Below are positions 1,503-4,500 of a stretch of 5,397 nt of DNA, one piece after another. This DNA is from a virus (Duplodnaviria; Heunggongvirae; Uroviricota; Caudoviricetes). The position numbers and the translations under genes are program-made. Within the stretch, counting starts at the first letter, position 1. The number at the start of each line of letters is the position of its first letter. The stretch lies in IMG/VR virus record IMGVR_UViG_648276662_000024; one strand, given 5' to 3'. The notes beneath the pieces were generated by a model. The model had not been told where the DNA came from. It did no database searches and worked only from the letters and a program-made list of their open reading frames with translations.

Positions 1503-1510
1503 GTCAACAT

Positions 1511-1532
1511 AACCGCTTCGGCGGTTTTTTTT
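1511..1532 (+). terminator. Intrinsic-terminator-like hairpin: stem AACCGC (1511-1516), loop TTCG (1517-1520), stem GCGGTT (1521-1526), T-run through 1532
   Basis: Seen in sequence: perfect 6-bp inverted repeat (core 4 bp G:C) closing a UUCG tetraloop, followed by an uninterrupted run of 8 T (1525-1532, partly shared with the stem). It lies in the 40-nt gap between the T-frame stop (1502) and the tape measure RBS (GGAG 1538-1541). The short stem suggests a weak or partial terminator/attenuator rather than a strong stop. Confidence 0.45.
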
Positions 1533-1542
1533 CGTCCGGAGA

Positions 1543-4500
1543 ATGAGTGTGGCGACATTACGTGAACTGATTATTAAAATCTCGGCAAATTCCCGGTCAT
1601 TCCAGTCAGAGATCTCCCGGGCTTCGCGTATGGGGCAGGATTACTACCGTACCATGCAGAACGGAGGCCGGCAGTCCGCTGCTGCATCCCGTGAAATGCG
1701 GCGTGCACTGGCAGAAGTGACGGATCAGATAAATACAGCTAAATCTTCGGCACTGAATATGGCGGGGGCATTTGCCGGGGCTTTTGCTACCGGTCATCTT
1801 ATTTCTTTCGCCGATGAGTGGAATTCAGTAAATGCCCGTCTGAAGCAGGCCTCACAGTCCAGTGATGATTTTCAGGCATCACAGCGTGAATTAATGGCGA
1901 TCAGCCAGAGAACGGGGACGGCGTTTTCTGATAACGCCAGCCTTTTTGCCCGTTCTGCAGCTTCCATGCGGGAGTATGGTTACAGTTCTGAGGAGGTACT
2001 GAAAGTCACCGAGGCGATCTCCACGGGCCTGAAATTATCCGGTGCCAGTACAGCAGAAGCCAGTTCGGTGATCACGCAGTTCAGTCAGGCACTGGCGCAG
2101 GGAGTGCTGCGCGGTGAAGAGTTTAACTCGGTGAATGAGAACGGCGATCGTGTTATTCGTGCGCTGGCTGCGGGAATGGGGGTTGCCCGTAAGGATCTGA
2201 AGGCCATGGCGGATAACGGAAAGTTGACCGCCGATAAGGTTGTTCCTGCACTGATTAGTCAGCTTGGGGCATTACGTGATGAATATGCGGCAATGCCTGA
2301 TACGGTTTCATCCTCTGCAACCAAAGTTGAAAACGCCTTTATGGCCTGGGTTGGTGGTGCGAACGAGGCAAGCGGAGTGACGAAGACGCTCTCCGGTGTG
2401 CTGAATGGTATTGCAGGCAATATTGACACTGTGGCAACCGCTGCCGGTGCTCTGGTTGCCGTCGGGGTAGCCCGATATTTTGGCAATATGGCGTCTTCTG
2501 CTGGATCTGCAACTGCCGGATTAATTACTGCAGCCAGAAACGAAGTGGCTCTTGCGGAAGCGCAGCTCCGGGGGACACAGATAGCAACAGCCAGGGCGCG
2601 TGCGGCGGTTTATCGTGCGCAACAGGCGGTTGTTGCTGCTCGCGGTACCGAAAGGCAGGCAGCCGCAGAAGCGAAACTGGCTGCTGCCCAGGCATCACTT
2701 ACCCGTAATATTGCGGCCAGAACAGCAGCACAGACAACGCTGAATACTGTCACGTCAGTGGGAAGTCGTCTGTTAAGTGGAGCACTGGGACTGGTTGGTG
2801 GGGTGCCGGGGCTTGTCATGCTGGGGGCCGCGGCCTGGTACACGATGTATCAGAATCAGGAGCAGGCCAGAGAATCTGCACGCCAGTATGCCGCAACAAT
2901 CGACGAAATTCGCCAGAAAACGTCGGCAATGTCGCTTCCTGAAGCGTCAGATAATGAGGAAAAGACGCGGCAGGCACTTGATGAGCAAAACAGGTTAATT
3001 GACGAGCAGAAAAGTAAGATTAAATCCTTACAGGAAAAAATTGCTGGCTATCAGTATGTGCTGGCAAACCCGGGCTGGACAACCGATAACGGTTTTATGA
3101 TTAACCACATGACGTCGGTAAAAACAGTCACAGAAGGGCTTGCAGAAGCAACAAATCAACTGGCAGTTGAACAGTCCCGTCTCACACAAATGCAGGGCAA
3201 AGCGCAATCCATTCAGGATGTGCTTGCCGGGCTGGAGGAGCGGCGGGGTGCGTTGATCCGTCAACAGGCGGCGGAACAAAACAAAGCGTATCAGTCCCTG
3301 TTGATCATGAATGGGCAGCATACCGAGTTTAATCGCCTTCTTGGGCTTGGTAATGAATTACTTCAGCAGCGACAGGGGCTGGTGAATGTACCGTTACGGC
3401 TACCACAGGCAACCCTGGATGATAAACAGCAGACCGCACTGAATAACAGCAAGCGCGAACTGGCTCTGTCCCGCCTTAAGGGGGAAGCGCGTGAGCGTGC
3501 CCGACTGGGCTATGCTGCGGATGATCTCGGCTTTGTGGGAGAGGCGTATCAGACAGCCAGACAGAATTATATCAATAACTCACTGGATGCCTGGCGAAAT
3601 AACCAGGCAAATAAACCCAAAGCGCATAAAAAGACCGAAGCGGAAAAAACAGAAGATATTTATAAACGGCTGATTAAACAGCAAAAAGAACAGATAGCAC
3701 TGGCAGGGCAGAATACTGAACTGGCTAAGATGAAATATCAGGTCAGTCAGGGCGAATTATCAACCCTGTCAGAAGCGCAGAAAAAAACGCTTTTGCAGAA
3801 TGCAGCACTCATCGACCAGAAAAAGATTCGTGAGCAGCTTGCTGCGTATGAAAGCAGCCTGGCGGACAGTAATGCCAGTACCCGGGCGTCTAACGACGCG
3901 CAGTTACTGGGATATGGTGAAGGCTCACGGATGCGTGAACGACTCCAGGAAATGTGGAGTATCCGGCATGAGTTTGAGCAGAAAAATAACGAGCTGCTGA
4001 GACAGTATCAGGCCGGAGAAATTGAAGAAGCCCTGTGGAAACAGGAGAAAGAACTGAATAAAAAATATCTGGAAGAGCGTCTCAGCGATCAGCAGGATTA
4101 TTATGCAAAGGCCGATGCTTTACGTAATAACTGGAATGCAGGACTCCAGGAGGGGCTGACCAACTGGGCAGACAGTGCCACCGATTATGCTTCGCAGGCG
4201 GCAGATGCTGTCGTTTCCACTATGGACGGGCTGGTATCAAATATTTCCGATGCGCTGGCCGGAAATGTTGTGGACTGGAGAAACTGGGGGAGTTCAATTC
4301 TCCAGGAAGTTTCAAAAATTCTGATGAATGCGGCCATTGTTAACGGACTGAAGTCACTCTCCGGTGCCGGAGGGTGGCTTGGTACGGTCGGCGGATGGAT
4401 TTCGGGGGCGGTGGCAAACGCAAAAGGTGGTGTTTACACATCGGCAAATCTGAGTGCTTACAGTAACACTATTGTGGATACACCGACGTATTTTGCTTTT

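Follow-up and report, generated by a model that had tools for sequence, protein, structure and literature searches.

RNA polymerase modified by a lambda-type Q protein ignores intrinsic terminators, and in the lambdoid Q-antiterminated late operons tR' is the regulated checkpoint directly after the late promoter. Phage T7, whose polymerase is its own and which lacks processive antitermination, carries the terminator T-phi after its major capsid gene. The PR', tR' and Q logic of the lambdoid phages has been summarised (PMC7547250). Lambdoid phages also carry morons, cassettes conceived as a promoter, a gene and a terminator; the first moron of HK97 is gene 15, which is placed after the tail chaperone genes and before the tape measure gene, and its product gp15 has been described as a superinfection exclusion protein (PMC3594210). 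The HK97 GenBank record (NC_002167) lists a 'terminator, putative' at this junction (8398..8422), after the gp15 moron and before H, and six more in the late operon, so that a putative terminator at this place is already known. In lambda, in agreement with the earlier note on this DNA, the T/H junction has no terminator, T and H overlapping by 8 nt, and the 19-nt T/H gap of HK022 has none either. A literature search found nothing specific to the chaperone/tape measure junction.

The window, that is, the whole stretch of 5,397 nucleotides of tailed-phage DNA analysed here, contains an element at the same position as the HK97 site, and this element bears every sequence hallmark of a Rho-independent (intrinsic) terminator (Table 1). 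Like the HK97 site, it combines a G+C stem, a 4-nt loop and eight T, it has the same 12-16 nt between T-run and tape measure start, and it belongs to the same kind of tail module. Nevertheless, the HK97 stem and loop are different (ACCCGCT-ATCA-AGCGGGT, -12.4 kcal/mol), and the HK97 terminator follows the insert gp15, whereas the window hairpin begins 8 nt past the T stop without any insert. The HK97 record also annotates a -1 frameshift equivalent to that of the window.

Table 1. Features of the window around the chaperone/tape measure junction
Feature	Position	Strand	Basis or remark
A-run, C-run, G-run, T-run hairpin	54..92	+	occupies the place of the relatives' terminator upstream of the tube gene
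Tail tube (major tail) protein, C-terminal Ig-like domain	110..814	+	relatives annotated as major tail subunit
Tail assembly chaperone G (Phage_TAC_1)	829..1200	+	E 2.4e-58 and annotation
Slippery heptamer A AAA AAG, -1 frameshift to G-T fusion	1191..1197	+	direct reading
T frame, C-terminal part of the G-T fusion chaperone	1197..1502	+	Phage_tail_T PF06223, E 3.5e-19; stop 1500-1502
T/H intergenic gap	1503..1548	+	46 nt between T stop (1500-1502) and tape measure start; empty form of the insert slot
Intrinsic-terminator-like element	1511..1532	+	AACCGC-TTCG-GCGGTT then T-run; equivalent in position to HK97 8398..8422 putative terminator
Candidate alternative hairpin, read-through mRNA	1516..1541	+	predicted MFE fold; SD buried
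Shine-Dalgarno (SD) GGAG of the tape measure gene	1538..1541	+	7 nt before GTG 1549
Tape measure gene (H-like)	1549..4776	+	GTG 1549 corresponds in alignment to the MATLRELI ATG of HK97 and BP-4795

Direct reading and a pattern scan place the stem halves at 1511-1516 and 1521-1526, with the UUCG tetraloop at 1517-1520, and the stem has four G-C pairs among its six. The earlier note had described a 6-bp stem with a UUCG loop followed by eight T; stem, loop and T count are correct, but the T-run (1525-1532) does not lie wholly beyond the stem, its first two T being the last two stem positions. The element can be read as a 6-bp stem with six T or, equally, as a 4-bp G+C core with eight T, and in close relatives the T-run has 7-9 T. 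The predicted energy of the hairpin is -8.0 kcal/mol alone and -8.5 kcal/mol in context, which makes it the weakest of the compared set (-8.0 against -8.5 to -19.3 kcal/mol) and puts it at the weak end of the family. The hairpin 21-mer occurs once in the window, with zero matches expected from shuffles. The element is intergenic and on the + strand, and the gap that holds it is, apart from the region upstream of the tube gene, the one sizeable intergenic gap of the window. An Rfam scan covering the entire window, with the threshold set permissively, gave no match at 1503-1551; its hits, all weak and below threshold, were confined to the left-end C/G run. The pattern scan also listed other hairpin and T sites inside coding sequence of the window.

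The equivalent junction was compared in related prophages, as proposed in the earlier note. Of 39 distinct contexts, 36 have a hairpin with a T-run in the 70 nt that precede the homologous tape measure start, against 0.02-0.04 per 70-nt window in the background scanned with the same detector, and a chance origin is thus effectively excluded. These contexts span E. coli, Klebsiella, Phytobacter, Leclercia, Enterobacter, Serratia, Brenneria and Pseudomonas, with identity of the tape measure N-terminus down to about 50%. All 18 distinct stems are fully paired, and both sides of the stem are changed in 370 of 1026 position comparisons; this count comes from a loop-anchored tabulation, three of the hairpins having come out one column off in a MAFFT alignment. 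The T-run, which termination requires, is likewise conserved (5-9 T, with one exception) and reaches at least seven T in all window-type relatives. Loci of E. coli, Leclercia and Enterobacter share the hairpin with 100% identity although they differ from one another on either side of it. The T/H junction region of the window is present in 876 of 5,426 complete E. coli genomes. The comparative pattern, structure kept while sequence changes, indicates that the junction element is under selection, and a terminator appears, across these contexts, to be a fixture of the chaperone (G/GT)/tape measure junction in HK97-type tail modules. That the exact hairpin might be tied to the zinc-ribbon insert described below or to the tape measure genes was considered and rejected, because its 21-mer occurs in about 40 unrelated phage contexts, indicating a generic design.

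The T/H gaps of the relatives are either 45-51 nt long, with the hairpin only, or 288-982 nt long, with one or more AT-rich insert genes and the hairpin. At least seven unrelated insert families occupy this slot, each followed by a terminator. For instance, the same hairpin as in the window ends a zinc-ribbon insert at five loci (L020, L077, L091, L093 and L096). In L094, the lone case of an insert on the reverse strand, no terminator precedes H. Among the empty sites, one from Pantoea (L092) carries a decayed terminator copy, AACCGCTGCGGCGGTATTT, and four independent lineages (window type, BP-4795 type, L090 and L097) retain the terminator intact although no transcript that it might end is apparent, which hints at a role beyond the insulation of inserts. 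As in a moron cassette, a terminator closes the slot of the window on its 3' side, in the same position as the moron terminator of HK97, but gene and promoter are absent: the 46-nt gap contains no ORF, and a pattern scan found no promoter-like site in 1503-1548. A simple scan found no convincing sigma-70 promoter before the nearest insert, that of L020, either. The window junction is not a moron, then, but at most a moron remnant or landing site.

The tape measure start, for which the earlier note had offered ATG 1543 or GTG 1549, can be assigned by comparison to GTG 1549. This codon aligns with the ATG of MATLRELI, agrees with RefSeq and phage annotations and has a 7-nt spacing from GGAG, whereas ATG 1543 lies just 1 nt from it. 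GTG is used in the window type and ATG in most relatives. The ribosome-binding site was correctly described as adjoining the T-run, from which GGAG is separated by 5 nt.

The explanation favoured here, with moderate confidence, is an insulating terminator that acts on polymerase not modified by Q and would be overridden in lytic growth. The nascent RNA would form a short G+C-rich hairpin, closed by UUCG and with the U-tract directly after it, and ordinary host RNA polymerase would release the transcript at the T-run. In relatives with a forward AT-rich insert, a moron such as HK97 gp15, the terminator would bar transcription of the insert from the tape measure and distal tail genes, and insulation of this kind in the lysogen may be the role that was selected; the window has the slot in its empty form, with a terminator and no insert. 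Close relatives are lambdoid: PhiR49_2 (a 96.7% relative), like HK97, has a Q antiterminator gene ahead of one late operon whose genes share an orientation, and a pattern scan found no credible promoter for the essential distal tail genes downstream of the hairpin; for these two reasons, read-through must be high in lytic growth. Q-modified polymerase would pass the junction terminator together with the other internal ones, and since it reads through, the terminator probably alters the dosage of tail genes little during lytic growth. The site resembles the terminators of the lambdoid Q-antiterminated late operons, tR' and downstream sites, in being a late-strand intrinsic terminator downstream of the Q gene in relatives, but it lies about 12 kb further downstream than the checkpoint tR' and is not known to have a regulatory role. 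Window positions 1-59 correspond to the 3' flank of E. coli dacA, fused near the tube gene, and this odd left-end junction has no match in IMG/VR; with such a flank at the left end, a Q-driven late operon is putative for this exact record.

The role that the earlier note had put forward, control of stoichiometry by a partial terminator, would require that some late transcripts stop at 1532 during lytic growth, leaving more tube and chaperone mRNA than tape measure and minor tail mRNA. The element indeed sits between genes of abundant products (tube, G) and of low-copy ones (tape measure, tip proteins), much as T7 T-phi stands past abundant structural genes and ahead of rarer ones, and this placement is the analogy behind the stoichiometry idea. 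A terminator-like site also follows the major capsid gene in a close relative and in HK97, the four empty-site lineages retain intact terminators, and read-through mediated by Q may be incomplete. Unlike T7, nevertheless, the relatives of the window have the Q antiterminator, and the polymerase sensitivity that attenuation calls for is not expected in their lytic cycle. A conserved, normal terminator (CCCGCC-GCT-GGCGGG-T7) also precedes the tube gene in relatives, although the tube protein is the most abundant tail protein, contrary to a simple dosage gradient. Moreover, the junction site is dispensed with in lambda and HK022, whose tails are comparable, and the presence of the terminator tracks the orientation of the insert, forward inserts having it and the reverse one not. 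These points weaken the stoichiometry role, which appears possible but unlikely.

A hairpin at this place might also serve to stabilise an mRNA 3' end by blocking 3'-to-5' exonucleases after termination or endonucleolytic cleavage, so that the tube/chaperone message outlives the distal one. The stable UUCG hairpin stands at the end of the V-G-GT block, which in relatives has a conserved hairpin on either side, and the hairpin that follows V in HK97 lacks a T-run, as might be expected of such an element. At the T/H junction, however, the T-run is as strictly conserved as the stem, whereas a nuclease barrier needs none, and the site is missing in lambda and HK022. Stabilisation is thus considered very unlikely.

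An effect on translation initiation has likewise found a lineage-specific hint in its favour, but through a fold that is not conserved. In read-through mRNA of the window, CUUCGGCGG (1516-1524) is predicted to pair with UCG/CCGGAG (1532-1534, 1536-1541) in an alternative hairpin, mutually exclusive with the terminator hairpin, which would hide GGAG and, together with the weak GTG, keep tape measure synthesis low. The alternative is predicted to be the more stable of the two (-10.4 vs -8.5 kcal/mol), the SD is unpaired with a probability of 0.02 in the window type and of 0.23-0.78 in other junction types, and GTG stands in the window type where most relatives have ATG. Yet the fold is confined to the junction type of the window: it was rejected as a conserved feature on folding six other junction types, where it is absent, and L077, which has the same hairpin with another downstream sequence, does not adopt it. 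The CYGGAG context also follows hairpins unable to pair with it (BP-4795, L073, L100, L102 and L103), the z-score of the fold is only -0.97 (folding 1490-1560), and near-identical relatives offer no covariation. Nor does the junction resemble a terminator/anti-terminator RNA switch, the alternative fold not being conserved and the region having no Rfam match. A translational throttle is judged highly improbable on these predictions. That the hairpin is a chance or neutral scar without function, as its short 6-bp stem (the weakest of the set), the similar sites within coding sequence and the decayed copy in the empty site L092 might suggest, is effectively refuted by the comparative data, namely its occurrence in 36 of 39 contexts where the background rate is about 0.03, the hairpin kept whole between divergent flanks in E. 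coli, Leclercia and Enterobacter, and a T-run never below seven in window-type relatives.

Beyond the favoured insulating terminator, a broader and quite unlikely possibility is that the terminator is a standing 'safe harbour' of HK97-type tail modules rather than a moron leftover. In the empty form it would delimit the V-G-GT message together with the terminator preceding the tube gene, and in the lineage of the window the SD would be hidden after read-through, a refolding that would keep tape measure protein scarce. If this were true, foreign genes bearing promoters could land without switching on the distal tail genes, and the sharing of one junction by at least seven unrelated cargo families would be accounted for.

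Compared with the putative terminator already listed for HK97, what is new is the recognition, as a real and conserved terminator, of a feature that is unannotated in the RefSeq and phage records examined, together with a tape measure start fixed at GTG 1549. The picture of tail gene regulation is unchanged unless termination persists in lytic growth, and the practical value is modest. For the biology of these phages, the chaperone/tape measure junction emerges as a recurrent slot for prophage-expressed membrane and lipoprotein genes, which may act in superinfection exclusion or in host fitness, and the terminator is a constant 3' landmark that may be used for systematic mining of such cargo genes.

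The window is a block of tail genes from a temperate E. coli siphophage and shares 96-98% identity with induced E. coli phages, among them vB_EcoS-689R5, PhiR49_2, phi467 and Evi. The region joining the T frame of the tail chaperones to H, the tape measure gene (the T/H junction), is found in 876 of 5,426 complete E. coli genomes. Directly 5' of the stop codon of chaperone gene G, an eight-A run followed by G (1189-1197) contains a slippery heptamer, at which a -1 frameshift producing the G-T fusion is expected; the corresponding site of HK97 is unlike it in sequence (GGGAAAG region).

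Features of the window and of related loci (L-numbers)
Feature	Position	Remark
Pre-tube site	window 60-92; L001 6003-6026; L004 1722-1745; L002 783-810; L003 from 211	
Tube protein	110-814	C-terminal Ig domain
Chaperone G	829-1200	Pfam Phage_TAC_1
T frame	slippery A AAA AAG 1191-1197 to stop 1500-1502	Phage_tail_T
Tape measure gene	GTG 1549 to 4776	
M	4769-5110	start of L comes next
T/H junction as insertion hot-spot	L002 2237-2525; L020, L077, L008, L069, L075, L072, L084, L073 (about 2050-2500); L087-L103 (about 520-1500)	
Insert: gp15-like membrane proteins		61-62 aa
Insert: membrane protein with zinc ribbon		110-114 aa; Pfam Zn_ribbon_3
Insert: two unrelated lipoprotein families		
Insert: secreted Cys-rich protein		
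Insert: Pseudomonas lipoprotein family		
Insert: two-gene insert		
Insert: 238-aa protein	L102	

A stem followed by eight T had been described in the T/H gap by the earlier note, and both are present at 1511-1532 as AACCGC TTCG GCGGTT and then T up to 1532, except that two stem-closing T had been counted within the eight. The element is either a 6-bp stem with six T or a 4-bp G+C core with eight T, with a computed energy of -8.0 kcal/mol alone and -8.5 in context. It begins 8 nt 3' of the T stop, its T-run stops 5 nt 5' of GGAG (1538-1541), and no Rfam family matched the hairpin region. Among near-identical junctions (L010, L013, L035, L062) the T-run (1525-1532) comprises 7, 8 or 9 T and never fewer than 7. 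Of the two tape measure starts formerly considered, GTG 1549 holds, being the RefSeq start, lying 7 nt from GGAG and corresponding in alignments to the MATLRELI start ATG of HK97 and BP-4795, whereas the in-frame ATG 1543, with a 1-nt spacer, is probably not used. The codon at 1549 is GTG in the window type, and ATG in L058/L062 and most other lineages.

Homologous tape measure starts were gathered from IMG/VR, from one genome per species and from annotated phages, with N-terminal identity down to about 50%. Of the 39 distinct upstream stretches of 70 nt, 36 contain a hairpin with a T-run whose end is 11-19 nt upstream of the start codon; these stem from E. coli, Klebsiella, Phytobacter, Leclercia, Enterobacter, Serratia, Brenneria and Pseudomonas. 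Elsewhere in these loci the same detector gave 0.02-0.04 matches per 70-nt window, and the + strand matches in the loci lie mostly at the T/H or the pre-tube junction. The 19 hairpins compared comprise 18 different stems and 18 different loops, with all stem positions paired and both-side differences in 370 of 1,026 pairwise stem position comparisons. Judged from this comparison, the hairpin is more than chance. The T-run is conserved as strictly as the stem, which points to termination rather than to a merely structural hairpin. On these sequence grounds the element is predicted to be a genuine intrinsic terminator.

At the equivalent position, 8398..8422, the HK97 reference record has the entry 'regulatory: terminator, putative', flanked by gp15 ('moron product') and gene H. 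By position, the window terminator is orthologous to this annotated site. Further putative terminators in the record follow the portal gene and the major head gene, stand on either side of the major tail gene and precede I and J. The term 'moron' was first applied to HK97 gene 15, sited between the tail chaperone and tape measure genes (PMC3594210). This junction is an insertion hot-spot, into which at least seven unrelated AT-rich cargo families have been inserted. Short gaps contain the hairpin only or nothing (45-51 nt where the relative is from E. coli or a Stx phage, 13-37 nt where it is more remote), and long, AT-rich gaps (277-982 nt) contain one or more extra genes and then the hairpin.

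A terminator lies 3' of every forward-oriented insert. The sole locus with an insert gene on the opposite strand (L094, 966-1500; 140-aa ORF) has no terminator before H, a single case that fits a terminator serving forward-oriented inserts. Intact terminators are also present in four lineages with an empty site, namely the window type, BP-4795/Stx phages, Pseudomonas lundensis (L090) and Serratia (L097). In the empty site of a Pantoea prophage (L092, 1472-1500), AACCGCTGCGGCGGTATTT resembles a decayed window hairpin that no longer has its T-run, a sign that selection may have relaxed at one or more of the empty sites, and another empty site (L104) has a 13-nt gap and no hairpin. The exact window hairpin closes the zinc-ribbon insert in E. 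coli (L020, L077) and in Leclercia/Enterobacter (L091, L093, L096), where it is identical while both flanks diverge, indicating that the window is the empty form of the slot with the terminator as its right-hand boundary; the insert may have been lost or may never have arrived.

Among less likely roles, a modest attenuating or mRNA-stabilising contribution of the hairpin may exist. The proposal that a partial terminator lowers tape measure and minor tail transcription for stoichiometry is in line with the intact terminators of the four empty-site lineages, but three observations weaken it. Firstly, lambda has no terminator at this junction, as the earlier note had supposed: an 8-nt overlap joins its T and H, and 19 nt separate those of HK022, leaving no room for one, yet the same tail type is built. 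Secondly, the presence of the terminator tracks the orientation of inserted genes. Thirdly, HK97-type tail modules have a second conserved terminator-like hairpin with a T-run immediately 5' of the tube gene, a putative terminator in the HK97 annotation. As the tube protein is the most abundant of the tail, a terminator placed before its gene speaks against a simple gradient of dosage, and with both sites conserved the tube/G/GT block is bracketed by two terminators.

In the window, this pre-tube region belongs to a left end (1-92) that is chimeric. The core E. coli dacA 3' flank makes up bases 1-59 (98.4% identity, 5,424 of 5,426 genomes) and stops exactly at the beginning of the native dacA terminator; next come about 18 C, 9 G and 7 T, then the RBS of the phage tube gene. 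From the T-run of the relatives' pre-tube terminator onward the sequence is again that of the phage, one C-run/G-run hairpin replacing those of host dacA and phage. No complete E. coli genome among those searched, and no IMG/VR contig, contains this junction. Homopolymer tailing or assembly may have produced it as an artefact, or else a real deletion may have joined dacA to a tail remnant. If real, it would leave a tail copy without upstream head genes or Q, placing the T/H terminator in a tail remnant downstream of dacA.

An effect on translation initiation was the other alternative. In the minimum-energy fold of the 71-nt context, CUUCGGCGG (1516-1524) is paired to UCG/CCGGAG (1532-1541), so that the Shine-Dalgarno is masked (unpaired probability 0.02), at -10.4 versus -8.5 kcal/mol for the terminator hairpin. 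However, it is no better than in shuffles (z = -0.97), other junction types retain the terminator hairpin with Shine-Dalgarno accessibility of 0.23-0.78, and the CYGGAG context is also found 3' of hairpins unable to pair with it. The fold is probably a coincidence of the C-UUCG-G loop with a CCGGAG ribosome site; together with the weak GTG start it would be compatible with low tape measure translation, an unsupported reading. The CYGGAG context is frequent just 3' of phage terminators of any hairpin sequence. The exact 21-mer AACCGCTTCGGCGGTTTTTTT is a recurrent minimal terminator design, found in at least 120 IMG/VR contigs (L109-L228); about 40 distinct contexts unrelated to this tape measure family, many of them before other tail genes (I-like, K-like, fibre, other tape measure genes) or after small inserted genes, rule it out as a family-specific motif.

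Lambda-type Q allows modified polymerase to pass late-operon terminators. PhiR49_2, 96.7% identical across the window, is a lambdoid phage of the standard type. Besides integrase, cI/Cro and replication genes it has antiterminator Q (14530-14910), downstream of which its lysis, head and tail genes all lie on one strand; HK97 likewise has an antitermination protein gene upstream of its late genes. In the late region of PhiR49_2, strong intergenic terminator-like sites follow Q, the tRNAs and the major capsid gene, and others precede the tube and tape measure genes. The post-capsid hairpin and T-run, seen in a close relative of the window and in HK97 (L085 24431-24457; L086 5192-5213), could be another internal late-operon site for possible partial termination. 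On the 3' side of the T/H hairpin come the tape measure gene and every tip gene, all of them essential, and the sole promoter-like match in a scan nearby (1552-1580) is inside H, such matches being no commoner than in shuffles. Given these essential genes, no credible nearby promoter and Q in relatives, we infer that read-through must be high in lytic growth. The logic of lambda-type Q at PR'/tR' has been summarised (PMC7547250). Most probably, the terminator would keep polymerase not modified by Q, coming from inserted prophage-expressed genes or from leaky lysogen transcription, out of the tape measure and distal tail genes, and would probably be read through in the lytic cycle.
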